In this document: piece after piece, positions 1-64,000 of the stretch | How positions within the stretch are numbered: the first letter of the stretch is position 1 | How the letters are laid out: each line of letters begins with the position of its first letter | DNA from: a virus | IMG/VR virus record: IMGVR_UViG_3300045988_159115 | Strand: one strand, 5' to 3' | Length of the DNA stretch: 64,000 nucleotides | Made by a program: the position numbers and the translations under genes | The notes under the pieces: generated by a model | The model's input: only the letters and a program-made list of their open reading frames with translations | The model's database searches: none | What the model was told of the DNA's origin: nothing

Positions 1-1
1 G

Positions 2-559
2 ATCCAGAAGATGCATTCTTCTGGTATTCTCCGGTTCAATGATAATATGAATGATATGGACTTCTTCTCGAAGTTCAAGTATACTATCAAAGGACCTCAT
101 TCCATGGGCGGAAAGAATTCCAACAACATCTCGATTCGCTACCGTGGCTCTCATCCGAGCTTCCTTGGTAATATTGACCTTTTGGTTTGTGGTAACTCTG
201 ACCCTGGTACTTCCGGTGTCTTGAGTCCGTTTGGTAAAATCAAGGGCTTCTATTTCAACGATGAGAATGAGACTGATGCGTTCCGGTTCGATTATGCAAA
301 GGATTTGGAGCGTGTCCTCACGGAAGAGAACTTTGAGTATATCAAAATCAACTGTGCTACTAAGGAGGAGTATTATGCTCTTCTGAATAAGTTGGCAGAC
401 TTTAACGAGAATGCTATTAAGATCAATGGTACGTCTCGTGAAAAGTACGAAGTTGTTGTTGAGAAAGAAGACATGACATCTGGTTCTGATTCGGATGAGA
501 AGGAAACTCAGGAAGAAGCTCCAGAGACTATTTCCGACACAACCGAAGATGATTCCTAA
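2..559 (+). CDS. Multisubunit RNA polymerase beta-subunit-like fragment (5' end outside window)
   Basis: Frame is open to the window edge. RYRGSHPSFLGNIDLLVCGNSDPGTSGVLSPF aligns with the RpoB segment [23 protein letters not shown]. The protein ends soon after in an acidic tail, so only an N-terminal part of beta is encoded. Confidence 0.6.
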   Translation: MQKMHSSGILRFNDNMNDMDFFSKFKYTIKGPHSMGGKNSNNISIRYRGSHPSFLGNIDLLVCGNSDPGTSGVLSPFGKIKGFYFNDENETDAFRFDYAKDLERVLTEENFEYIKINCATKEEYYALLNKLADFNENAIKINGTSREKYEVVVEKEDMTSGSDSDEKETQEEAPETISDTTEDDS

Positions 560-572
560 ATAGGAGGATACG

Positions 573-827
573 ATGAGAAAAATTAGTCCGACTGGACATG
601 TACAGCAAGAGGATTCTGTGATCCTGAAGTTATTGGACGACATTGTAGACTACTACAGTGATCCGAAGACTATGGGAACGATTTCTCATGCTCTCACGGA
701 GAAAATCCGGTATGTCCAGAAAAATTACGAGTCTATCATTCGAGACGATATTGACCGTATTGCACAGGATACAACGAAGCGTCGATATGACGTAGAGGAT
801 ACGGAAGAGGCCGCCAAGGATGACTAA
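573..827 (+). CDS. Hypothetical protein (84 aa)
   Basis: ATG preceded by TAGGAGG with a 7-nt spacer. No recognisable motif. Confidence 0.65.
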   Translation: MRKISPTGHVQQEDSVILKLLDDIVDYYSDPKTMGTISHALTEKIRYVQKNYESIIRDDIDRIAQDTTKRRYDVEDTEEAAKDD

Positions 828-1530
828 ACTCGTACTAGATTTTGGTAGAGTCACTCGAATCATGCGCGTGAAACTTACAGTGATCGTGGATGATGAAAGT
901 GATCCGAAGACATCTAAGTTTACGAAAGTCGTTGACAAAAGTAACTATAAAGGAGTGGAGTATCTTCGGGTAACTCCACATCCTTATGTTACTTTGGACA
1001 TCTCTGCTGGGAAGGACAAATCAGAAGACTGGAATGGAAACCTTCAGATCAATCTGAATACCATGTATAAGTATGCACTTTGTAGAAAGCTGAATAAGCT
1101 GATAAAGTGCTTTACCGAACTGGAAGATCTTTTCATGGTAGATGAGGACGGTCATCTTCACGTAAATAAAGATGAGTCGAAGAAAGCTGCTCAGGAACTG
1201 CTGACGAATAATGGTGCAATTCGAATTGCACCTGTGGTTGTCTATAAGAATACTGGAGATACTTCTTCTGGTGTGGAAGGCGCAGTTTTTATGATCAATA
1301 CGATTGATAACTATTGCACTTTTACATACACTGAACTTCAGAATTTTTATGATCTATTGGAAAATATGGACATGATGGCATATGCAATGGATCTGATCAC
1401 GATGAATCAAGTGTATTCAAAAGAGGAAACTGAAATTCCTCAAGTCAACTATTCTGAAGTGCAAAGTCCTGATACAACGAAAGCAACTCCGATTGTTAAA
1501 TCTCCGGATACAATTCCGGACCTAAGTTAA
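820..1530 (+). CDS. Hypothetical protein (236 aa)
   Basis: ATG overlaps the end of the upstream ORF (translational coupling). No motif recognised. Confidence 0.65.
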   Translation: MTKLVLDFGRVTRIMRVKLTVIVDDESDPKTSKFTKVVDKSNYKGVEYLRVTPHPYVTLDISAGKDKSEDWNGNLQINLNTMYKYALCRKLNKLIKCFTELEDLFMVDEDGHLHVNKDESKKAAQELLTNNGAIRIAPVVVYKNTGDTSSGVEGAVFMINTIDNYCTFTYTELQNFYDLLENMDMMAYAMDLITMNQVYSKEETEIPQVNYSEVQSPDTTKATPIVKSPDTIPDLS

Positions 1531-1545
1531 AAGGATGTGATACCA

Positions 1546-2094
1546 ATGAATCATAGCCTGATCAAGGCTGGAATGAAAGATAAAAGTCTTGTCTTCAAGA
1601 AGAGTGATTCGAATAAAGCAATTCGTACCGCTCTCGATATGATGGGTGAGACAAAATACATTATCATTTGCATGGAAGAAATTACAGAACTGCTGGAAGT
1701 CATCGGTGATAACATTGATGGCACTGGGTGCTATATCCACACCGTTGAAGAGATTGCTGACGTAGCATGTTGCTGTGATATTCTCCAGGTCATTTTCGAT
1801 ATAAGATCGAAGGAGCTGGCAAAGCCTGAGAAGTGCAAGAAGAAGAGAGCAAACTTGAAAGCGCATTCTCTTTTGTGCCAGTCCCATATGATCCTTTCTA
1901 AATACCTCCGTCACGCAGATCATATAGATCTGGATGATTTTAGAGAGGTTAAGATCATCCCGTGTATCAACATGATGGCAAGTGCCGTAGAAATGCTGAA
2001 GAATGCATATGGGATTAAAGATAGCGAGATTAAGAAACTGCGTGCGATCAAGCTTGATCGTATGAAGAAGCGCATTGAGAACAACGACCTGTAA
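1546..2094 (+). CDS. Hypothetical protein, possibly MazG-like NTP pyrophosphohydrolase
   Basis: The track ORF starts at GTG 1537, but ATG 1546 has AAGGA 10 nt upstream. EEITELLEVIG ... EEIADVACCCDIL resembles the paired acidic helices of MazG-type enzymes (weak). A terminator follows. Confidence 0.4.
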   Translation: MNHSLIKAGMKDKSLVFKKSDSNKAIRTALDMMGETKYIIICMEEITELLEVIGDNIDGTGCYIHTVEEIADVACCCDILQVIFDIRSKELAKPEKCKKKRANLKAHSLLCQSHMILSKYLRHADHIDLDDFREVKIIPCINMMASAVEMLKNAYGIKDSEIKKLRAIKLDRMKKRIENNDL

Positions 2095-2096
2095 GT

Positions 2097-2139
2097 AAAA
2101 GAAGAGTACCTTGAGAAATCTTGGTACTCTTCTTTTTTG
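2097..2139 (+). terminator. Rho-independent terminator
   Basis: AAAAGAAGAGTACC..GGTACTCTTCTTTTTT after stop 2094. Confidence 0.8.
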
Positions 2140-2327
2140 TAAATATGGGACAAACCTTATAGTAATCCGGATGAGGAATTTCGTTACTATCGGTGCCAAT
2201 GGTAGTAGGTTGCTCATTCGCATTTATGGTTTGATATTATCTATATCGACTACGGTTAACAGGAGCTAGTTTGGATTACCTGACTAGCTCCCGTTAACTA
2301 TCCTTATAATAGAAAGGAGATGTGGAT

Positions 2328-2423
2328 GTGATTCGAATTCTTTTTGAAGATTTGGTTTACTATGTCTGCTATGCATTTTACTTTATTCGATTTATGGTTT
2401 TTGGTATAGATGATGATTTATGA
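2328..2423 (+). CDS. Possible 31-aa hydrophobic peptide (GTG start)
   Basis: AAAGGAGA lies 7 nt upstream of the GTG. Product is MIRILFEDLVYYVCYAFYFIRFMVFGIDDDL. The ORF sits between two stem-loops and is below the track size cutoff. Confidence 0.2.
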   Translation: MIRILFEDLVYYVCYAFYFIRFMVFGIDDDL

Positions 2424-2425
2424 TT

Positions 2426-2470
2426 AAAAGGTAGCTACTCTATATTGGATTACAGAGTAGCTACCTAATT
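2426..2470 (-). terminator. Rho-independent terminator of the SbcC-like gene
   Basis: AGGTAGCTACTCT pairs with AGAGTAGCTACCT. A T-run follows on the minus strand. Confidence 0.7.
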
Positions 2471-5077
2471 TTAGCTTTTTTCGATAGGAATATAAGATGC
2501 GAGTTCTGCGTTAGAAGAAGTTCTGTTTCGAGTATCTACGATGTCAACAGGATATGCGTTAAACATGTCGTTGTGAGAGATAACGAATACCTGCTCAGCA
2601 TGAATCATATCAATTTGCATCTCCAAGACATGTAAAAACTTCTCACGATTGGATATATCGAGAGTGGCATCGATCTCATCAAGAAGCATGATATTATACT
2701 TCGAGATAGATTTGTAAGTGAGTGCAAATGAGAGTGCTAGAGAGATAAAGCTTCGCTCACCCTGAGAAGCATAAATCACATCTTTTACAGTGGTTCCTTT
2801 TGTACTATAAGGAATTCCAAATTCATCAGCCGTGATTTCAAAATCTTCCAGATGAAGATCTCCGTCATATACGACATCAAGTAGTTGATTCGCAATATCT
2901 TTGATGTCTTTTAAATATGCTTGGATGAAAATAAGAGGAATTCCTTCTCGACTAGAAAGAGCACGAGCAAGATATTCAAGATCCGTAAACTTGGAACTGA
3001 GTTCATCAAGATCTTTTTTATACCTCTTATAATTCTCGATACGGAACTCATTGTCTTGGTGAGTTTTACTCATCTTATTCTTACGGAACTGGAGATCATT
3101 GAGAACTGATGTTTTCTCACGAATCTGAAGAGATAACTGAGATGCAAGGGTAAGTTTTGATTTGAGATCATTAAATTCAGTCTCAACTTCATCCTCATGC
3201 TCCATTGCAACTACCATATCTTCATAATCAGATACGGAAGCTTCTTTTTCTGCAATCTCTCTATTGAGAGAATTGATCGTTTCTTTGACTTCATCAAGTT
3301 GTCCCATAAGAGTTGTACGAGAGTTGATGAGCTCTTCCAGTTTATTCTGGAAATACTCAATATTGCTATTTGCTTTCTTATATTGAGCAAGCATAGATTT
3401 CTGACGGTTGAGTTCTTCGAGATCAGCATCCTGAAGTTCATCATCTGTGATGAGTCCAAGCTCATGGAAGATAATATCCTTATCATAAATCCATTCCATA
3501 TTACAAATATGGGTAAGGACTGTACTCATCATGAACTGGTCTTTGATACACTCAGGCATCTTCTCAAAGATATCATGATAATCTCTCAGATATTTGAGGA
3601 CTGTCTGGATGTTATTATAGGCCATTTTTGTATAAGCCAAGAACGTCTCATCTTCAATGACCTTGTCTGGGGCTTGTGTTGCGTACTCATAGATTCTCTG
3701 ATAGAAGTCATAAACTCTGCATCCAGACGGATTCTTACAGTCAGGACCTAAGAGACCAATATCTTTGCTGATTTCAGCATAGACTTGCTCACAGAGAGAT
3801 TGCATTCGGTTCCGTTTAATTTTCTCTCTATTCTCTCTGGTATATTTCTCAATATCCGTTTTTGTGTGGAAGAAGGATACAGCTTTCTGAATTGGTCCTT
3901 TACCAAGCTCATATGTCGACAGCAGGATATCCATGCATTTATCAAGCATCTTGATAAGGTCTTCCATTTCTGCTTTAGAACATGGACGAACATATCCGGC
4001 GATTCCACTTTCTTTTGCTCTTCTCCGAATCGTTTCTCTAAGAAGCTCAATATTTGCTTCCATGTCTTTGACGTTTTGATCATCCTCAATACGAGCGATT
4101 TCACGTCTGATGGAATCAATTTCATTTGCGATAGAATCCAGTTGATTCAGAATTCCAGTTCGTGTAATGACGTTTGTATCAAGAGAAGATTTTGCTTTCA
4201 GAATAGCAATCTTAGCTTCTTCAATCATAGACTTCAGGGTGCTAATGCTAATCTTAATTTCAGATGCTCTTGCTAGTGCTTTCTGAATGTGCTTTAGTTC
4301 TTTTTCTTTCTCTTGAATCCGGTCTCTCATTGCTGGAATATCTCCACAGTCATTGAGTTGATACTGGAGAACGGAGAGTTCACTATTCACTTTCTCAATC
4401 TTTGCTGTGAGATCCTCAATTTGATGCTGCAGACTTTTTTGAGCCTTTTTGAGTTCTCCCAAATCATCCACTTGAAGTCGACGAATTAGGTCTGAAGTAT
4501 GATTGATTTGGATATTGACTTTATTCTTATCTGCCATAATTTTCTTATGGTAAGAAAGATAAATGTCAGCTTCACTGATAATCTTACCAGTGAAGTTTTT
4601 TCGTTCCTGTCTCTTCATATCAATGAAATTTGTGACATTGCTACCAAGACGAGTAAGCTTCATATAATCTTGCTCAAGTCCAAGTTCCTTTTCCACAATT
4701 TCTTTGAAAGAAGTGACATTCCCGTTTTCGTTCAATTCTACACCATTTTTCTGGATATAGCTTTTGATAATATGCTTATCACTATTTCTGGTATAGAAAT
4801 GCTGTATGACGTATAAATCGTCACAATCGGAGATATGGATTTCTTTATATCCATTTTCTCTTGGAACGATAATTGGGTTATCGCTGCGTACATCCATGTT
4901 GCCATTTGTAGGGAATGGATGTAAGCAACTTAAAATGCTAGTCTTACCAGACCCATTTGGTCCAGTAAGCAATACGACATTATTATTAGACTTACTGAAA
5001 TCAATCTCAATCGTTTCCGTATTGAATGCAGTAACGATATTGATGAAATTCGTAAGTTTTAGATACAAGATTTTCAT
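2471..5077 (-). CDS. SbcC/Rad50-family recombination/repair ATPase
   Basis: Walker A GPNGSGKTS, a long central coiled coil, signature-like SQGERSF, Walker B MLLDEIDATLD and H-loop VISHN. Confidence 0.85.
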   Translation of the reverse strand: MKILYLKLTNFINIVTAFNTETIEIDFSKSNNNVVLLTGPNGSGKTSILSCLHPFPTNGNMDVRSDNPIIVPRENGYKEIHISDCDDLYVIQHFYTRNSDKHIIKSYIQKNGVELNENGNVTSFKEIVEKELGLEQDYMKLTRLGSNVTNFIDMKRQERKNFTGKIISEADIYLSYHKKIMADKNKVNIQINHTSDLIRRLQVDDLGELKKAQKSLQHQIEDLTAKIEKVNSELSVLQYQLNDCGDIPAMRDRIQEKEKELKHIQKALARASEIKISISTLKSMIEEAKIAILKAKSSLDTNVITRTGILNQLDSIANEIDSIRREIARIEDDQNVKDMEANIELLRETIRRRAKESGIAGYVRPCSKAEMEDLIKMLDKCMDILLSTYELGKGPIQKAVSFFHTKTDIEKYTRENREKIKRNRMQSLCEQVYAEISKDIGLLGPDCKNPSGCRVYDFYQRIYEYATQAPDKVIEDETFLAYTKMAYNNIQTVLKYLRDYHDIFEKMPECIKDQFMMSTVLTHICNMEWIYDKDIIFHELGLITDDELQDADLEELNRQKSMLAQYKKANSNIEYFQNKLEELINSRTTLMGQLDEVKETINSLNREIAEKEASVSDYEDMVVAMEHEDEVETEFNDLKSKLTLASQLSLQIREKTSVLNDLQFRKNKMSKTHQDNEFRIENYKRYKKDLDELSSKFTDLEYLARALSSREGIPLIFIQAYLKDIKDIANQLLDVVYDGDLHLEDFEITADEFGIPYSTKGTTVKDVIYASQGERSFISLALSFALTYKSISKYNIMLLDEIDATLDISNREKFLHVLEMQIDMIHAEQVFVISHNDMFNAYPVDIVDTRNRTSSNAELASYIPIEKS

Positions 5078-5532: not shown

Positions 5533-6819
5533 TTATGACAGATGATAGATTTCCTTGATGAGATTATTGATATAATCCACATTAATCTGGATGATGATTT
5601 TGTACGTGTAGTACGTACTTTGATGATGAAACTTCAGAGTGAGGGTATTAAAGTCGAATGAGTAATCCTTATCAGGAGTCATCAGACGGCCCTGCTTCCG
5701 AACTTTCATCTTGAAGAAGTCCGTTGTCGGAATTCCTCGTTCAAAGTGGAAGTTGAGAACTTTCTTCAGACTATCATTGAAGAGAGTGCTAAGATCAACT
5801 TCATCATCCATCTGTTCCAGCCTACAAGACGGAGATGCATACAAAGTCCATCCAAGAGGAAGATTCACATCATCTTCTGTCAGTACATCTGTGAAAATCG
5901 GAACGATGGTATTTCCACTATCGTCACAAGTAACGATACTATTTTCTTTGATATCGTCACTAAAGATATAGTAGAAGCCTGTCGAATAGAATTCACAGCG
6001 CATACTGAAATTGATCTTATAGGAATCACCAACTTGGTTTACCTTATCGCCTTCGTCAACATTGAAGTTTGTGATAATCGTGTCGATATTGACTGGATAG
6101 TACCGATAAAATTCTTCATGTCCAGTTGCTCCTTCCAACTTGTAAGTGATAGGAGTAACGGATGTAGAATTCAGATGCTTCAAGAACTTTGCTGTACTTC
6201 CATCTTCATCTCGCATCGGAACTTTGATCAGTTCGGAATACTTTGCAAGAAGATCAGGCGGAATATAACTTTCAAGACATGTCTGGAGATTGAAAGGAAT
6301 CTCATATCTCACTGAGTTCTTGAAGTAGTTCGCCCAGTTGATTTGCTGAATCATCGTATTGAAGATCAAGATGACATCGAAATTCAATACGCTACGATTC
6401 ATTTGATACTTAATTGCAGTACGAGAATTCCGATCCCAAATGAAATCTTGTAAATTAGTACCGCCTCGCATCATATAGAGGTCACCCTGACGCTCAATGA
6501 GAGGAGTTCCACGAAGGAATCTACTGTCATCATCCCAGTCAATACGGGGACGGATAACAAACATGGGAGGCTGCTTCTTTAAGAACTCTTTCGGAGTACT
6601 TCTCATTTGAGCATGAGCGATCTTACTATTGACATGAATTGTCTTGAAGAAATCTTTCGGAAAAAGATTGATGAGCCAATTCTGAACGAATGCTGTCACG
6701 TTTCCATAGGTATGAGCAGCTGATGTTTGCGCTTGGATGTAATGCATCGGATGCCCATAGATAAGATCATGACGCTCGTCTTCTGTCAGCTCATAGTCGT
6801 GAAGTCGTTTTGTATCCAT
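5533..6819 (-). CDS. Hypothetical protein (428 aa), last gene of the RNAP-fragment operon
   Basis: GAGGTGA SD. Follows the beta-prime fragment gene after a 31-nt gap. No polymerase motif recognised. Strong terminator downstream. Confidence 0.7.
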   Translation of the reverse strand: MDTKRLHDYELTEDERHDLIYGHPMHYIQAQTSAAHTYGNVTAFVQNWLINLFPKDFFKTIHVNSKIAHAQMRSTPKEFLKKQPPMFVIRPRIDWDDDSRFLRGTPLIERQGDLYMMRGGTNLQDFIWDRNSRTAIKYQMNRSVLNFDVILIFNTMIQQINWANYFKNSVRYEIPFNLQTCLESYIPPDLLAKYSELIKVPMRDEDGSTAKFLKHLNSTSVTPITYKLEGATGHEEFYRYYPVNIDTIITNFNVDEGDKVNQVGDSYKINFSMRCEFYSTGFYYIFSDDIKENSIVTCDDSGNTIVPIFTDVLTEDDVNLPLGWTLYASPSCRLEQMDDEVDLSTLFNDSLKKVLNFHFERGIPTTDFFKMKVRKQGRLMTPDKDYSFDFNTLTLKFHHQSTYYTYKIIIQINVDYINNLIKEIYHLS

Positions 6820-58036: not shown

Positions 58037-59371
58037 ATGGATTATGTATCTATGAAGATGTCAATCTATGAAAACTATGCAAATGGTAAGCTGACACAGG
58101 AAAACGCTCGTCAGCTGATTGGCGTCTTGAATAGTAACTACGGCAACACCCTCGTACAAGAGATGGTGGACGCTGAGAATGAGTTTATGATGAACAGCGT
58201 CCACGCCGCATATGAAAGTTCTGGCGTAGACGCTCTTTATGAAGCAAGTGAAACATTTGGCCAGAAGGTTGCTAAGATCTGGGAAAATTTCAAGAAGTGG
58301 ATCAAAGGTATCATTGATGCCATTCTTGGTCGTAAGAAGGAAGTTCCTGATAATTCTAAGGTGACTGTGAAGAAGGGCCTTCCGAAAGCAATGGATGATC
58401 TTCTTACACAGGTAAAGAAGCTTAAGAGCGCAAAGGGTACTGTTGCAATTGGCGCAGCAGTTGCCGGTGTTATTGGAGCGACAGCTGTTGTTAAGAAGCT
58501 GAAAGGCAAGCCTTCTAAAGGCGACGCTACTGAAGAGATTAATGCAGCAGCGTTAGCTAATAAAGCAGAAGACGTTGCTAAAAATGCAGCAGACCCGCCT
58601 AAAGTTGAAACTCCGCCTGCTGCTCCTCAAGGCCAATCTTCGGAACAAAAAAAAACAACCGATCCGAAGTCTGGAGAAGATCAGGTAACGCCTTCTAAGA
58701 TCATTAGTTCTGTTACAGGCGCAGCAAATGTTGCTGACGACGTTAGTAAACAGGCCACCGCATCTTCTCCTGAGCATACTGAAAGCTCAACTGATCTTAA
58801 GAAGCTTTTTGTTAAATTTAATAAAAATGGTGGTCTTTACGATCTAGATGATGATGCAAAATATCTTGGGAGGCTGAGCTATAGTGCTCTAAAGACATAT
58901 GCTGACTATGATCCTGAAAACAAGATATATTGTAATAAAACCAGAAAGACCGCCCAAAACATTATTGATGGCTACATACGTAATTGCGGTGGTGAACCTT
59001 ATACAAACCCTATAAACGATTATCGCAAAGAGTATCATGACATTCTTTATCAAGAATATCCGGATACTCCTGAAGGTGACGAAAAGCTTCGTTCAGATCT
59101 CGTTGGCCGTAATGGAAAAATAATGTCAATTATGAAAGATTTGGAGGCTAGGTATAATAAAGTAAATTCTCAGGTTAGTGAGCGTAATCTGGAGAACTAC
59201 AAGCGCCTCTACATACCAGACTGGTCCACACAAGCTGCTACTGCTACTGCTGGAGTTTATGTTAACTGCCGAGATCTTGTATTCCATATTAGTGGATTCT
59301 GGTATGCTCTTGAAGGTAGATGCCACAAAACACCCTACAATGCGAATGGAATTTATTTTATAAAAAAATAA
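58037..59371 (+). CDS. Hypothetical protein (444 aa), paralog A
   Basis: AAAGGAG SD. N-terminal SIYENYANGKLTQENARQLI and QKVAKIWENFKKWIKG match the next gene. Confidence 0.65.
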   Translation: MDYVSMKMSIYENYANGKLTQENARQLIGVLNSNYGNTLVQEMVDAENEFMMNSVHAAYESSGVDALYEASETFGQKVAKIWENFKKWIKGIIDAILGRKKEVPDNSKVTVKKGLPKAMDDLLTQVKKLKSAKGTVAIGAAVAGVIGATAVVKKLKGKPSKGDATEEINAAALANKAEDVAKNAADPPKVETPPAAPQGQSSEQKKTTDPKSGEDQVTPSKIISSVTGAANVADDVSKQATASSPEHTESSTDLKKLFVKFNKNGGLYDLDDDAKYLGRLSYSALKTYADYDPENKIYCNKTRKTAQNIIDGYIRNCGGEPYTNPINDYRKEYHDILYQEYPDTPEGDEKLRSDLVGRNGKIMSIMKDLEARYNKVNSQVSERNLENYKRLYIPDWSTQAATATAGVYVNCRDLVFHISGFWYALEGRCHKTPYNANGIYFIKK

Positions 59372-59394: not shown

Positions 59395-60639
59395 ATGAAT
59401 ACTGATCTCAGGTTATTCATTTATGAGCAGTATGGAAATGGTCAAATTGATCGTGATACTGCTCGTGCACTTATTTCCAGAATTTCTGGACCCGAATATT
59501 ACGAGCGAGCATATCTGAATGCAATGGCTGAAATTGATACAGCCGAATCTGCATTCATGGAATCTGCTCTTGACTATGCGAACGGATATGCTGACCAGTT
59601 TACCTTTGAGGCTCAAGCGGAAACTCTTAGTCAGAAGATCGGCAATGCTTGGAAAACCTTTAAGAAGTGGGTTTCTGAGATGTGGGATAAGCTTCTTAAA
59701 TTCCTTGGTATTCGTAAGACTGAGGACGATAAAATCGGAATGGAAAAGAAGCATTTTGATCTTCTTGGTACAATTGATAAGGGACTCAAGAGTGCTTTGT
59801 CTCATATCACAAAGAACGATAAAGACTTTAAGAAAGTCAGTGATGATAAGAAAGGCGAGATTGAGTCCACTCTTGATGATAATCCTGGCTTCATTGAACT
59901 TCTCAAGATCGCCGCTCTCATTGGCGCCGTCAAGTTTACTTCTTATAAAAAGAAGAAAAAGAACTTAAGAGATATCGGCCACGATATTGTGTGGGTCACA
60001 CGTGATAAGATCTACAGCACGTGCGATTCGATCAAGGATACTGTAGATAAACTTCTTGTCACAGCAGATAGCTGGGATGGTAAGTTTGCATCAAAGCTGT
60101 CTACAGTTCTTCATAAAATTCTTGGTTGGATTTCAAAGCTTCCCTCGGCATTTACTATCCCTGAGGAAGTCGTTAATGGCGACGAATTTAAGGGTATTAC
60201 CGACGCAAAGAAGTTTGCTACTCTTATCAATGCATCCAATAAGAGTGATAATATCAGTAGTCTTGATTTTGCGAATCATTATAGCATTAATACAAGTATG
60301 AACAGTATCATTGATATGGTCATTGCTTCTATCAAACGGGATACAACCTTTAAGGAAGCAGACAAGATGGTGGAGCTCACTCGCAGATATGCGCGACTTG
60401 ATATTTTCTCAAGAGGATTTGAAGCAAGTTCTATGGATCGTGATGTCAATGAGCACATCAATGGTAAGGGAATTCCGGATGAGTCTGCTATCAAACAAGC
60501 GATGTATTTGCTTGATTGTAATTTCTGTAAGAAGCGCTACAATCAGGTGAAACATCTGTATCAGCGTGTTGCTGAGAATGGTGGTAAGTTTGCAGAAGAT
60601 CCTACTAAGAACAAAGACGCAGACGAATCAAAGTCTTAA
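59395..60639 (+). CDS. Hypothetical protein (414 aa), paralog B
   Basis: GAAAGGA SD. Contains FIYEQYGNGQIDRDTARALI and QKIGNAWKTFKKWVSE. Confidence 0.65.
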   Translation: MNTDLRLFIYEQYGNGQIDRDTARALISRISGPEYYERAYLNAMAEIDTAESAFMESALDYANGYADQFTFEAQAETLSQKIGNAWKTFKKWVSEMWDKLLKFLGIRKTEDDKIGMEKKHFDLLGTIDKGLKSALSHITKNDKDFKKVSDDKKGEIESTLDDNPGFIELLKIAALIGAVKFTSYKKKKKNLRDIGHDIVWVTRDKIYSTCDSIKDTVDKLLVTADSWDGKFASKLSTVLHKILGWISKLPSAFTIPEEVVNGDEFKGITDAKKFATLINASNKSDNISSLDFANHYSINTSMNSIIDMVIASIKRDTTFKEADKMVELTRRYARLDIFSRGFEASSMDRDVNEHINGKGIPDESAIKQAMYLLDCNFCKKRYNQVKHLYQRVAENGGKFAEDPTKNKDADESKS

Positions 60640-60650
60640 CTATGCATAAA

Positions 60651-60697
60651 AAGAATCTGGATATGATAGACGATTATGTTATCATATCCAGATTCTT
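60651..60697. terminator. Bidirectional terminator ending the radical-SAM operon
   Basis: AAGAATCTGGATATGATA pairs with TATCATATCCAGATTCTT, 18 bp. Confidence 0.8.
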
Positions 60698-60700
60698 TAT

Positions 60701-62038
60701 TTATTCTTTTGCGAAAGCTTCCTTTTCAAGAGCGAAAAGGTTGTCAGCTTCTTCTTTGCCGACGAATTCTACCGTTTCATCATACGGAAGATAGATTTTC
60801 TTTGCAGGCATATCATGGAGCTTCAAATGCCGCTGGTTGTAGTAATAGCAAATTGCTAAAACCCGTCCCTTATGAGCATTACAGATATTGGTTGATCTCT
60901 TGTTTGGAGTGCCATACATCTCATAGTTATCACCAGAGCACCATGCGCACCCACCGGCAACAGGACAAGTTAAACACTTTTCAGGTGATTGACTTGTCTT
61001 AGTGATTGCCTCAAGTTCATTCTTCAAAGCAATCGTTCTTTCGGTATTATAGATACCATTAAAGCAATCACCAATACACATCTTCTCTGCAAGTTTATTT
61101 CCTACAGAGATAGGTGCATATCGAAGACAAGGATAGCATTTACCATCTGGTGCAAACATGAGCATTTTACCTGTTCCACCACACCAGTTATTATCGTTAT
61201 CGGACGGCTCACCGGTATCTTCACCATCAAGAATTGATACGAAAGTATCATCTCCGATATCAATGAGAATATCAGCAAGCTTCTTTAACTCGAAATAAAT
61301 ATCCCGAGCATCCGAAATCGTGTATACCGGCTCAAACGCATAGTTACACATGATATCGACACAACCAAGATCATGCATGAACTTTACGCTCTGTGAAAGA
61401 TACTTCGTTGAACCGGGAGTGAACGTCATCTTTGTTCCAGTGACACCATAACGATCACGGATATTGATAAAAGCTTTCAGTGCTTTTTCAAATGAACCAT
61501 TTCCGTACTGGTCAATACGGTATTTATCATGAAGTTCCTGAATACCATCAATCGAAACTGACGGAGAGATAATCTCATGATACTTCTCCATAAGATGCTG
61601 GGTCTCTGGAGTAAACCAGAGCTGGCCATTTGTTGCGAACGATACACGGCTGAATTCAATCAGTTCAGTATATCCACGTCGTGCTGCGGTGATCATGAAA
61701 TAGTCAATGATCTCTTCCATTAACTTTGCTTCCAAAAGAGGCTCGCCTCCAATGAAATCAAAAATAATGGCTTTTGTATCATGGCTGATCACCATATTCG
61801 GATCATTCTTCTCATACATGTCAAGCACAGCATCGACGCATTTCTTTGCTGTATAAATGCTCATAGAACCATCACACTTATTGTGCTCATAGCAATAAGA
61901 GCATCTTAAATTACATTGGTTGGTGACTTGAAATGTCACCGATCTTGCGATAGGTCCTTTTGCAGATTTTCTATATCTGCTATAAAGTCGAGAGATAACG
62001 TCGTGATAACCGACGTCATGCCGTCTTACTCCTGCCAT
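60701..62038 (-). CDS. Radical SAM enzyme with C-terminal SPASM-type domain (anSME / peptide-maturase family)
   Basis: CNLRCSYCY (CxxxCxxC), GGEPLL, then CGGTGKMLMFAPDGKCYPC and CLTCPVAGGCAWCSG...NICNAH auxiliary-cluster cysteines. GAGGTGA SD. Start overlaps the upstream gene by 13 nt. Confidence 0.8.
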   Translation of the reverse strand: MAGVRRHDVGYHDVISRLYSRYRKSAKGPIARSVTFQVTNQCNLRCSYCYEHNKCDGSMSIYTAKKCVDAVLDMYEKNDPNMVISHDTKAIIFDFIGGEPLLEAKLMEEIIDYFMITAARRGYTELIEFSRVSFATNGQLWFTPETQHLMEKYHEIISPSVSIDGIQELHDKYRIDQYGNGSFEKALKAFINIRDRYGVTGTKMTFTPGSTKYLSQSVKFMHDLGCVDIMCNYAFEPVYTISDARDIYFELKKLADILIDIGDDTFVSILDGEDTGEPSDNDNNWCGGTGKMLMFAPDGKCYPCLRYAPISVGNKLAEKMCIGDCFNGIYNTERTIALKNELEAITKTSQSPEKCLTCPVAGGCAWCSGDNYEMYGTPNKRSTNICNAHKGRVLAICYYYNQRHLKLHDMPAKKIYLPYDETVEFVGKEEADNLFALEKEAFAKE

Positions 62039-62328
62039 GTGAATGTCACCTCATCAGTGATAAAATCAAAGTTTGCCATCATATCATGCGGACGATTGGG
62101 GAAGTACTTCCCAATTACCTCACTCTGAACGAGATTAAAATCAATATCTGCTTTATAGAAGTCATTTTTGACAGCTTCTAAGACTTCTTTCGCATCTGAA
62201 TTATTTGCACCATTCAGCTGACGAGTGAGAATATTGATTAAATTCTCCATGGCTTTTCGAGTATAAAAACGGCTCTCCACAGCTGTCATTTCTTCAGCTG
62301 GGATCTCGACCATCATCTTCTTTTCCAT
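62026..62328 (-). CDS. Hypothetical 100-aa protein in the radical-SAM operon
   Basis: ATG with a GAGGA SD. Overlaps the upstream gene by 35 nt and the rSAM start by 13 nt. Confidence 0.6.
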   Translation of the reverse strand: MEKKMMVEIPAEEMTAVESRFYTRKAMENLINILTRQLNGANNSDAKEVLEAVKNDFYKADIDFNLVQSEVIGKYFPNRPHDMMANFDFITDEVTFTWQE

Positions 62329-62944
62329 AGCAAATCCTCAAACTTATGCCGTCGTAGTGAATCGTTTTCAGCTCTTCGAACTGATCGCGTAATTCAATAC
62401 TACGCTCAAGGCATTTTACAAAATATGTGAAATTGAAATAGTCGTCTTCACTCTCTGTATTTAACGTGAACTGAAGACGAACGACAACAGCAGAGCAAAT
62501 GATGTATTGAGCCCATACGATTTCTCGAATCGTAGGTTCGATCTCCAAGAATTTTTCAATGGGAGTATCATCATTCACGATGAGTTTTGAATAGTGGACA
62601 TCGAAGCAGAAAGAATAGATTGCGAGAGCATAACTATACATCTGCTTTTCGATATCAGTCAGATCAATTGTATCAAGCACCTCATTAATGACGTCAATTG
62701 CGTGAGTACAAATCTGAAGATGCTTTGAAAAATCTTCGCAAAGTCCTTTATTCTTGAAAATCGTAAAGTAACAAAGGACGTTGAAAAATCTCGGAGTTTT
62801 CTGATCAGGAGGGCAAAAGCGATCAAGCTCTTCCTTAAATTCTTCTTTTGTGAATTCTTGATCTGTCACAAGAGCTAAAAGGCATTTGTGCACAGCATAG
62901 GTTAAATTATATTTGTCCATTCGAGGAATAATTCGTTCTTCCAT
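62294..62944 (-). CDS. Hypothetical 216-aa helical protein in the radical-SAM operon
   Basis: GGAGGTG SD. Begins 19 nt after the stop of the Cys-rich gene. Confidence 0.65.
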   Translation of the reverse strand: MEERIIPRMDKYNLTYAVHKCLLALVTDQEFTKEEFKEELDRFCPPDQKTPRFFNVLCYFTIFKNKGLCEDFSKHLQICTHAIDVINEVLDTIDLTDIEKQMYSYALAIYSFCFDVHYSKLIVNDDTPIEKFLEIEPTIREIVWAQYIICSAVVVRLQFTLNTESEDDYFNFTYFVKCLERSIELRDQFEELKTIHYDGISLRICYGKEDDGRDPS

Positions 62945-62963
62945 GTGCTAACACCTCCACTCC

Positions 62964-63653
62964 TTAAAACTTAATGTTGCCACAGAAGTTATCGCAGTCA
63001 TTACTGCAAGCAGCTTCATCATTGCAATGAACGGAACAGGTGCCAGAGCAGTCACTGTCCCAGCATTGACTGGAGCAAGTGGTACCGCAACTGTCACAAC
63101 CATTACAGTCACCATCGCAACCGAAGCAGCCACCAGAACAGCTGTTTGAGCACACACCACCGCACGAACCAGAGCACGAACCAGAGCAAGTATTCTTACA
63201 TGTATTATTGCATGTACCAGAGCAGCTTCCGCTACACGTGTTTGTACAGTTACCTGTACACGTGCCTTTGCAGTTCGTATAGCATCCAGAGCTACAGAGA
63301 CCGCTACAAGACGACTTGCAGCCGGTATCTGAACTTGTAACACCTTTACTTGAAAGCGTTGCTACTTTACTTGCAGCGGTTGTTAAAGTACTTGCAGTTA
63401 CTTTCGCGCCATTACCAGGAGTAATCCTGCTACCAGTAACAGCATCGAGAGGCTGCGTAATCTTTATGATGTGCTCCTGAAGAATCTTGCCACCAGTAGC
63501 AGGATTCGTAGAGTAGTTATAATTTGATCCATTGTAACCGCTCATACTACCAGTACTTCTAGAATTACTCCGGCGATTGATTTCATTCTTCACCAGATTT
63601 TTCAAAGAGGTGAAGTCCGACGCCGTAATTTTATTTCCTTTACCTGCGCTCAT
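62964..63653 (-). CDS. Cys-ladder protein: Cys-free N-terminal domain (111 aa) plus 29-Cys C-terminal region
   Basis: AAAGGGGTGA SD. Residues 112-225 hold 29 Cys. The first 17 are spaced exactly C-x3-C, with S/G/T/N between them. The protein ends in GNIKF. Confidence 0.75.
   Translation of the reverse strand: MSAGKGNKITASDFTSLKNLVKNEINRRSNSRSTGSMSGYNGSNYNYSTNPATGGKILQEHIIKITQPLDAVTGSRITPGNGAKVTASTLTTAASKVATLSSKGVTSSDTGCKSSCSGLCSSGCYTNCKGTCTGNCTNTCSGSCSGTCNNTCKNTCSGSCSGSCGGVCSNSCSGGCFGCDGDCNGCDSCGTTCSSQCWDSDCSGTCSVHCNDEAACSNDCDNFCGNIKF
62967..63320 (-). repeat. Coding cysteine ladder (29 Cys, mostly C-x3-C)
   Basis: Counted from the translation. At the DNA level only one 12-nt tandem duplication (CSGSCSGSC) is obvious. 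Confidence 0.8.
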
Positions 63654-63657
63654 AATA

Positions 63658-64000
63658 TCACCCCTTTACCCGAATCTTTACACGACGAATATCTGTCCGA
63701 TTGTCGTCTTCCACAACATATCCAACAACGCGCTTATGCGGAATACTCTCATCATCGGTAGCAATACCAACACCGGGAATATCAGACACAATGATGGTAT
63801 CACCACGATGCACAGGACCAGTTACTTTACACATAACACGTCCTGCAAGGGATACCGGAATGAAATTGATAAGGTTCTTTTTCACATAATCTTCCCCATC
63901 ACCTGCTTTATCACCACCGATAAGCATGGCATACTCATCGGAATGAACACCAGCAACAATTTTACTTGTTGCAGTTGCTTTGATGTAAGATTCATGATCA
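63658..64000 (-). CDS. C-terminal part of a fibre/spike-like protein (5' end outside window), possible peptidase-G2/IMC-like domain
   Basis: Frame is open to the window edge. IPVSLAGRVMCKVTGPVHRGDTIIVSDIPGVGIATDD...VGYVVED resembles the VGLLGK..VRDDGTC..G.....GIAT...GYRV pattern as I recall it. Confidence 0.35.
   Translation of the reverse strand, partial: DHESYIKATATSKIVAGVHSDEYAMLIGGDKAGDGEDYVKKNLINFIPVSLAGRVMCKVTGPVHRGDTIIVSDIPGVGIATDDESIPHKRVVGYVVEDDNRTDIRRVKIRVKG

Follow-up and report, generated by a model that had tools for sequence, protein, structure and literature searches.

We analysed a 64,000-nucleotide stretch of viral DNA, IMG/VR record IMGVR_UViG_3300045988_159115 (hereafter the window), which carries at its far end a minus-strand cassette of five genes. 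The cassette couples a tail-fibre-like gene to a radical S-adenosylmethionine (SAM)/SPASM enzyme and to a protein whose C-terminal half is a ladder of regularly spaced cysteines. The window's genes include ones for terminase, the major head protein, the tail sheath and SbcC-like proteins; hence we take this large gut phage to be a myovirus. No match among GenBank phages was found when 20 kb of the window were searched by megablast, and over the enzyme gene the window is 98% identical to IMG/VR contigs of 255-259 kb.

In the direction of transcription, a fibre-like open reading frame (ORF) that ends at 63658 and is open to the window end at 64000 is followed by the ladder gene (62964-63653, 229 aa), two genes that we call p216 (62294-62944, 216 aa) and p100 (62026-62328, 100 aa), and the enzyme gene (60701-62038, 445 aa). 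Their junctions are, in order, gaps of 4 and 19 nt and then overlaps of 35 and 13 nt. A bidirectional intrinsic terminator at about 60651-60697, acting on both strands and consisting of a long, A/U-rich, perfect hairpin with a U-run, separates the cassette from two convergent plus-strand genes. The hairpin has an energy of -26.5 kcal/mol (z = -7.4), and none of 200 shuffles folds equally well; a simple generic terminator scan did not pick it up. Within the cassette, one promoter-like match rose above the scan minimum (10/12, at 62289-62260, inside the p100 gene). Given the short gaps, the two overlaps and the single terminator, we conclude that the five genes form one transcription unit, as an earlier note made from the letters of this DNA had suggested.

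The radical SAM/SPASM enzyme and the cysteine ladder

The earlier note had read the last gene of the cassette (60701-62038, minus strand) as a radical SAM enzyme with a SPASM domain, the architecture of sulfatase-maturating enzymes and of sactipeptide/ranthipeptide maturases, from a CX3CX2C motif, a GGEPLL motif and a C-terminal cysteine pattern. All three were borne out. The protein carries CNLRCSYCY (C42/C46/C49), IGGEPLL and seven SPASM-type cysteines (C286-x12-G-x4-C304, C355-x2-C358-x5-C364-x2-C367 and C386), and these features are invariant in the alignment of relatives out to gp163 of the Salmonella phage SPN3US. The profile searches that the note had suggested gave matches to Pfam Radical_SAM (E 2.7e-10) and to SPASM (E 0.005, under its gathering score). 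The top NCBIfam model was TIGR04115, 'radical SAM peptide maturase, CXXX-repeat target family' (294.2 bits, E 1.7e-87), which aligned over model positions 1-359 of 359 to enzyme residues 31-399, the SPASM part included. Since this match already starts at residue 31, an N-terminal RiPP recognition element (RRE) domain is not evident.

TIGR04115 leads the next-best model, PapB (NF047865, 144.5 bits, cutoff 340), by 150 bits. Lower in the ranking come CcpM, QhpD (TIGR03906, 81 bits, cutoff 453), HxsB and the SCIFF maturase (TIGR03974, 69.7 bits, cutoff 425); the neighbourhood consists of phage tail genes, not of a qhp operon. Two other assignments were rejected. An anaerobic sulfatase-maturating enzyme (anSME; TIGR03942) scored 59.8 bits against a cutoff of 349, no sulfatase was found, and the ladder has no CxPxR motif. 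A grouping with NrdG or QueE, which the earlier note had named as fatal to its reading, fails on model scores, the top matches all being peptide maturases. For comparison, TIGR04115 gives 619 bits on a Bacteroidales enzyme (locus L130), 312 on a Faecalibacterium prophage enzyme and 126 on SPN3US gp163. The exact enzyme sequence is present in the NR database as DAY74437.1, 'MAG TPA: radical SAM peptide maturase, CXXX-repeat target family [Caudoviricetes sp.]'; the contigs concerned measure about 262 kb. Judged by its sequence, the enzyme is of the radical SAM/SPASM peptide-maturase type and belongs to a divergent sister group of TIGR04115.

The ladder protein falls into two parts. Its N-terminal domain of about 110 aa (63324-63653, minus strand) is free of cysteine, and the remainder (62964-63320, minus strand), the presumed substrate region, is a ladder of CXXX repeats with the consensus C-[ST]-G-[STG]. 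The first cysteine is residue 112, and 29 cysteines lie within the last 118 residues, as the earlier note had counted. The step from one cysteine to the next is exactly four residues in 23 of the 28 intervals, 16 of them consecutive; in 100,000 shuffles of the cysteine-rich tail the longest such run was 6. At the DNA level the ladder shows just short 12-nt repeats in 2-3 copies, so its periodicity is kept at the protein level. Cysteine makes up 25% of the ladder, alongside small residues, and the first 17 units contain few acidic residues. The protein closes with a short hydrophobic tail, GNIKF.

Database models say little about this protein. TIGR04117 matched weakly (E 0.013, 15.6 bits, cutoff 50), since that model also spans a different N-terminus; Pfam and PHROG gave nothing significant, and a profile search of PDB sequences with the ladder alignment produced chance-level matches only. 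The start of the ladder protein (MSAGKGNKITASDF) lacks an RR motif, and no signal peptide was seen. AlphaFold2 (AF2), given a 36-sequence alignment, returned a mean predicted local distance difference test score (pLDDT) of 46, and about 31 over the ladder region, which was too low for a fold search on that part.

The N-terminal domain is strongly conserved, with the motifs DFTxLKNLVKxEINRRSN, the most conserved segment, and EHIxKIT, after which come the first ladder units, GCKSSCSGLC, invariant in the family. A search of 1.84 billion representatives with this domain yielded 151 clusters at 50% identity. Where the representative was at least 140 aa long, a ladder followed the domain in 89-90 of 98 cases; those without one were mostly spurious low-complexity matches or probable frameshifted gene calls. 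The domain is more than a short leader peptide, and we propose that it may serve as a docking or recognition domain.

Variants of this layout were also observed. In four loci the order is swapped, with the ladder first and the same conserved helical domain, here DFxxLKxxIxxExxRR, last (L114 9733-10710, L118 9151-9894, L124 9136-9903 and L144 1826-2521), and these genes sit downstream of the radical SAM gene. In protein P0257 a beta-rich insert of about 110 aa separates the N-terminal domain from the ladder. Two prophage cassettes carry a second, ladder-only ORF without the N-terminal domain (L105 6722-7309, 44 Cys; L111 6859-7647, 64 Cys), each directly following an N-domain protein with a short ladder. 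One further candidate, P0193 (L170 180-854), in which the N-terminal domain is fused to a tail-fibre-like 'LSSNDFTDEAKAKLDGI' repeat and no ladder follows, was set aside as its 1.7-kb contig is too short to trust.

A search of 15 billion proteins found the three neighbours of the ladder protein and not the exact sequence of the ladder protein itself. A 131-aa ORF in an alternative frame (62948-63343, minus strand) overlaps the repeat, and gene callers probably mis-call such cysteine-ladder genes. A different interruption was seen in many gut-phage contigs of 75-140 kb: a conserved in-frame TAG in the N-terminal domain of the ladder gene (L057 at position 6583, L061, L062, L065, L068, L069 and L071-L075) and another in the p216 gene (L081, L083, L085, position 7467). 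Both sites align with a conserved Trp (TGG) of close relatives, which suggests that these phages suppress or recode TAG. A radical SAM gene and a short ladder are likewise present in Phass-1, which belongs to the 'code 15 clade' and has Sup-CTA tRNAs.

Between ladder gene and enzyme gene lie p216 and p100. The p216 product (62294-62944, minus strand) is an all-helical protein restricted to a clade of phages and Faecalibacterium prophages, and it had zero matches in Pfam, NCBIfam or PHROG. Its AF2 model is all-alpha (pLDDT 62.5; predicted template modelling score 0.61), and it is possibly a scaffold or chaperone. The p100 product (62026-62328, minus strand) is an accessory protein distantly related to TIGR04116, 'CXXX repeat peptide modification system protein'. 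Homologue searches gave only 3 close relatives for p216 and 7 for p100, and the alignments were therefore too shallow for good models.

At the head of the unit, the window holds the C-terminal 113 or so residues of the fibre-like protein (63658-64000, minus strand), the gene being cut by the window end; here the earlier note's fibre-like gene stands as to its context, which is conserved in relatives, and is incomplete as a gene. A full-length relative has 372 aa (L018 5266-6384). The fragment contains a domain, fibC (...VHSDEYAMLIGGD...IPVSLAGRV...RVKIRVKG), which recurs in 90 loci as the conserved C-terminal end of the protein encoded immediately before the ladder. The fragment itself matched nothing significant in Pfam or PHROG, and a PDB sequence profile search with the fibre alignment stayed at chance level.

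The cassette in relatives and in cultured phages

Do enzyme and ladder travel together? Confirmed relatives of the enzyme numbered 367 in IMG/VR and 218 among GTDB species representatives, and through the enzyme alignment we fetched 80 loci from each. The co-conservation set comprised 166 loci, 159 of them found via the enzyme (L005 and L006 are the same SPN3US region). Counting as a ladder any same-strand ORF beside the enzyme with at least 8 cysteines spaced 1-5 residues apart, we found one adjoining the radical SAM gene in 150 of the 166 loci, the co-occurrence for which the earlier note had proposed a synteny survey. Profiles of the cassette genes, built with jackhmmer from the window proteins, showed that the order fibC fibre, ladder, p216, p100, radical SAM is strict in about 85 loci, namely every viral locus with enough flank and the Faecalibacterium prophages. 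MT835573.1, a human-gut phage contig whose enzyme is 55% identical, has the same five-gene order. p216 was found in 88 loci, in each with the ladder gene on one side and p100 on the other, and the p100 profile extends to 124 loci, Bacteroidales included. The fibC domain was present in 90 of 112 loci that have the N-terminal domain and in none that lack it. The radical SAM enzyme, the ladder protein, the TIGR04116-like p100 and the clade-specific p216 thus form a conserved gene set that is transcriptionally tied to a tail-fibre-like gene.

Ladder length varies among these phages from 13 to 63 cysteines, while the share of four-residue intervals stays at 81-89% in all groups and the unit remains C-[ST]-G-[STG]. 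Extreme ladders occur elsewhere: a 650-aa protein with 144-145 cysteines in a Tenericutes metagenome-assembled genome (L121 5177-7129) and a truncated Clostridia ORF with at least 95 (L101 4207-5391). Proteins of the system from Faecalibacterium prophages were seen on at least 1000 contigs.

The genomic setting is that of tail modules. Ahead of the cassette in P2-like Firmicutes prophages stand Baseplate_J, Tail_P2_I and a tail fibre (Phage_tail_fib, Phage_fiber_2); this is the slot that the tail-fibre-assembly gene takes in P2-like phages. The tail module encloses the cassette in L001 and L134; in the chromosome of F. prausnitzii strain 2 (NZ_CP186691.1, prophage at about 2,319,231-2,336,523) it lies inside a prophage tail module, and sequence inspection placed candidate lysis genes further downstream. 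PHROG tail-fibre families are matched by neighbouring genes in both L001 and L018, the best E value being 2e-20 (L018 4772-5254). In L114 (Brevibacillus) the order has changed to fibre, radical SAM, ladder, and the fibC fibre is still adjacent.

The cassette has also been duplicated along with its fibre. L018, a 98%-identical relative of the window, carries at 1-4708 a second, divergently transcribed cassette that corresponds to the region just past window position 64000. It encodes a 391-aa fibre, a 286-aa ladder protein (44 Cys), a 193-aa p216-like protein, a 99-aa p100-like protein and a 465-aa radical SAM enzyme. The two L018 cassettes stand head to head, each with a different fibre; the two ladder paralogues agree almost completely over their first 20 or so residues, and the remainder has diverged. 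The contig pairs L007/L017 and L008/L021 agree with this head-to-head duplication.

Two cultured phages carry the pairing. The enzymes of SPN3US and of the Erwinia phage phiEaH2 are 27-29% identical to that of the window. In SPN3US, three tandem ladder ORFs of 130, 134 and 68 aa, each with an N-terminus of about 50 aa followed by a CxxxC/CxxC ladder, lie between gp167 ('virion structural protein') and the radical SAM genes gp164/gp163. They are minus-strand ORFs at 143828-144220, 143413-143817 and 143191-143397 of JN641803.1 (3094-3486, 3497-3901 and 3917-4123 in the reverse-complemented locus L005). In phiEaH2, two lie in tandem (L168 3090-3482 and 3422-3892). All are unannotated or mis-annotated: SPN3US gp166 (RefSeq gp100), in GenBank and RefSeq alike, is an out-of-frame ORF over the second ladder ORF. 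Over their first 63 aligned residues, which span the leader and the start of the ladder, the ladder ORFs of the two phages are 76% identical, with 94% positives, and this similarity across two genera supports the ladder reading frame in SPN3US. Given the mis-framing, a proteomics search against annotated proteins only would not contain the SPN3US ladders. [quoted passage not shown] Characterised amber mutants of SPN3US also exist (PMC5105663); gp163-gp167 are not mentioned in that paper. The Campylobacter phage CP21 was considered as a further bearer of the system and rejected: its radical SAM protein is distant (25% identity) and no ladder ORF was found, so that clade represents a different system.

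Beyond the terminator in the window lie the two convergent plus-strand genes, tandem paralogues at 58037-59371 (444 aa) and 59395-60639 (414 aa). The N-termini of their products are similar (IYENYANGKLTQENARQLI and IYEQYGNGQIDRDTARALI), and both gave zero matches in PHROG.

Comparison with known systems

The earlier note had named no described phage structural protein that is matured in this way. The pairing itself does have a precedent, the CXXX-repeat system curated in NCBIfam (TIGR04114 to TIGR04119). The window shares with this canonical system a TIGR04115-type radical SAM/SPASM enzyme, C-x-x-x repeats in which Ser, Thr and Gly abound and whose spacing statistics match, and, by a weak match, a small TIGR04116-like accessory protein. 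A full example is L130 (Bacteroidales), where TIGR04115 (619 bits), TIGR04119 ('CXXX repeat peptide maturase', 233 bits), TIGR04116 (88 bits) and TatC (154 bits) accompany six substrates of about 100 aa, each with an SRRxFFK twin-arginine signal followed by a ladder. Several precursors of this kind were seen in L130 (2930-11582), L126 (7128-11529) and L151 (6572-10426), from Bacteroidales and Acidobacteria. TatC is model-confirmed in L130 only; an ORF like the L130 TatC follows the L126 cluster, and none was seen in L151. The signals together with TatC imply that the canonical products are matured in the cytoplasm and then exported by the twin-arginine translocation (Tat) pathway.

The window differs from that scheme in several respects. 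Its 229-aa substrate has a folded-looking N-terminal domain of about 110 aa and no Tat signal, an unrelated 216-aa helical protein takes the TIGR04119 slot, TatC is not nearby, and the whole sits in a phage tail-fibre operon. Because it lacks TIGR04119 and an export signal, adds p216 and the N-terminal domain, and scores under the curated cutoffs, we conclude that the window cassette is a divergent phage variant and not a strict member of the CXXX-repeat system. Our literature search, which did not cover the original TIGRFAMs description, found no published chemistry for the CXXX-repeat family, and no paper linking CXXX repeats, radical SAM enzymes and phage fibres. To our knowledge the chemistry of the family is uncharacterised.

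Better-known relatives of the enzyme offer a guide. PapB, which makes freyrasin, and the SCIFF maturases CteB and Tte1186 install several thioethers between Cys sulfur and side-chain carbon along a repetitive cysteine motif. Like them, the window has a radical SAM/SPASM enzyme with a repetitive-cysteine substrate, and PapB is the second-best model of its enzyme. Unlike them, its substrate is several times larger and its enzyme has no evident N-terminal RRE domain; where freyrasin has a CX3D motif, the window ladder has Cys, not Asp or Glu, at i+4. The radical SAM/SPASM enzyme QhpD puts intramolecular thioethers into QhpC, a structural subunit of a larger assembly. Known SPASM substrates are thus not confined to short peptides and sulfatases, as the earlier note had supposed. 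QhpC, the 82-aa gamma subunit of quinohemoprotein amine dehydrogenase, a periplasmic enzyme, receives three cross-links. The resemblance lies in a protein subunit as substrate and in the QhpD model score of the window enzyme; the difference lies in scale and setting, with up to 29 ladder units in the window and up to 144 in relatives, in a viral tail context.

Possible roles of the ladder protein

The best reading of these sequences is that the radical SAM enzyme and the ladder protein are an enzyme-substrate pair. By analogy with the characterised maturases, the ladder is probably cross-linked by multiple thioethers and associated with the fibre. Taken as one joint claim, that the cassette represents the CXXX-repeat system in a variant belonging to phage tail modules, with a ladder that is matured by the radical SAM enzyme and then becomes fibre-associated, we put the probability at roughly 0.6.

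Several observations weigh against this joint claim. The model scores that tie the window to the CXXX-repeat system fall below their curated cutoffs, 294 bits against 350 for the enzyme and 20.6 against 50 for p100 (E 3.7e-4, aligned from position 3 to 88 of the 90-position model). None of the five window proteins matches TIGR04119, which supplies the second maturase in canonical loci. The AF2 model of the N-terminal domain is weak, with three helices at pLDDT 55-75. For p216, Foldseek against the PDB gave nothing significant (best E 0.56, TM score at most 0.34); these matches were to helical-repeat, tetratricopeptide-repeat and 14-3-3-like scaffolds only. The fibre is identified from its context and from weak matches, one of fibC to the intramolecular-chaperone domain of Peptidase_G2 (E 0.028) and one of a GGTG-type stretch to the R2-pyocin tail fibre (E 0.028). 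It is the arrangement of genes that suggests a place in the virion for the ladder protein, and the analogy with characterised relatives that suggests thioether formation. Finally, the position downstream of tail-fibre genes is also a classic site for accessory 'moron' genes.

If the ladder is matured and fibre-associated as we propose, events might run as follows. During late expression in the cytoplasm, the enzyme would dock on the helical N-terminal domain of the ladder protein, with p100, p216 or both acting as adaptor or chaperone. It would begin at the invariant units GCKSSCSGLC and proceed along the ladder, taking a hydrogen atom from a neighbouring residue and joining that residue's carbon to a cysteine sulfur, by analogy with PapB, the SCIFF maturases and QhpD. 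Up to about 29 short thioether rings could form. The product would be a rigid element of variable length, resistant to proteases and to reduction, made with no need for oxidative disulfide formation. It could then join the tail fibre as a distal or decorating subunit, or act as a fibre-bound assembly factor in the P2 G/tfa-type position. The strongest version, in which the ladder protein is a genuine virion component of the tail fibre with a fold made by dozens of enzyme-installed thioethers, we hold only tentatively, as a possibility that falls short of even odds.

Perhaps, instead, the ladder protein helps the fibre without staying on it: once modified, it would be a chaperone or template that aids the adjacent fibre in folding or trimerising and is not retained in the particle. 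Fibre helpers such as P2 G, Mu U and T4 gp38 and gp57A provide the model. The ladder gene occupies the tail-fibre-assembly slot after Baseplate_J, Tail_P2_I and the fibre, as P2 G, Mu U/U' and T4 gp38 directly follow their fibre genes; it has been co-inherited and duplicated with its fibre; and fibC occurs with the N-terminal domain and not without it. All of this suits a helper as well. However, no similarity to known tail-fibre-assembly families was detected in Pfam or PHROG, and the known helper systems have neither a radical SAM enzyme nor a cysteine repeat (small-residue, Gly-rich repeat motifs are found in the gp38 adhesins of T2/T6 type). A ladder that varies from 13 to 63 cysteines among close phage relatives, and reaches 144 elsewhere, would be odd for a chaperone, and a costly multi-step maturation seems excessive for a transient helper. 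We therefore regard a non-virion assembly factor as unlikely.

Two readings would remove the ladder, or its thioethers, from the fibre altogether. The cassette could be a moron-like locus for a ribosomally synthesised and post-translationally modified peptide (RiPP), with a product that is set free when the host lyses, or that lysogens make, and that serves as a bacteriocin, signal, metal binder or anti-defence effector; the earlier note had itself offered a phage-made Cys-rich effector as an alternative. Canonical bacterial CXXX peptides, at about 100 aa with twin-arginine signals and adjacent TatC, are indeed exported products; L105 and L111 have extra ladder-only ORFs; and morons often sit beside tail fibres. 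Yet the phage ladder proteins lack a signal peptide, and neither a transporter nor a leader protease is encoded in the cassette. It is joined to the fibre gene by the 4-nt gap, with one terminator and a single internal promoter-like match; it is internal to tail modules and accompanies each fibre paralogue; and the system is found in the jumbo phages SPN3US and phiEaH2 too. This makes such a locus, with any of those products, improbable to us. Least probable of all, in our estimate, is that the ladder is a metal- or cluster-binding, metallothionein-like module or a stack of disulfides, with the radical SAM enzyme converting Cys to formylglycine, methylating, epimerising or modifying the fibre instead. 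A cysteine content of 25% among small residues, a ladder that AF2 cannot fold, and Tat signals on the bacterial homologues, which are typical of cofactor-loaded or pre-folded proteins, would fit such a module. The nearest characterised relatives of the enzyme, however, form thioethers (PapB 144 bits, QhpD 81, SCIFF 70; anSME 60), and the enzyme co-occurs with the ladder over three substrate architectures rather than with one fibre type.

The finding is not categorically new, since the enzyme family is known and the gene has already been auto-annotated. What appears to be undescribed, and widespread, is the phage tail-fibre-linked architecture with a full-size substrate. The annotation record carries a lesson of its own: the cysteine-ladder genes of SPN3US and phiEaH2 are called out of frame, and the window's exact ladder sequence is missing from the protein collection. 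The system is open to direct test, as SPN3US and phiEaH2 are cultured and carry the pairing in the ORFs that annotation missed.

The known targets of radical SAM/SPASM maturases are small secreted peptides, sulfatases and a single enzyme subunit. A version that phages conserve and duplicate together with tail fibres would bring such chemistry into the architecture of viruses, and the CXXX-repeat family, whose biochemistry is unexplored, would gain a biological role. If the ladder is indeed a cross-linked part of the fibre, it would be the first viral structural protein to be 'stapled' by an enzyme, present both in very common Faecalibacterium prophages of the human gut and in the genetic model phage SPN3US. 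It would stand in for a disulfide ladder independently of redox state, since a reducing cytoplasm would be no obstacle to building it, and evolution could tune host recognition or fibre reach through ladder length, which runs from 13 to more than 60 rungs among close relatives.

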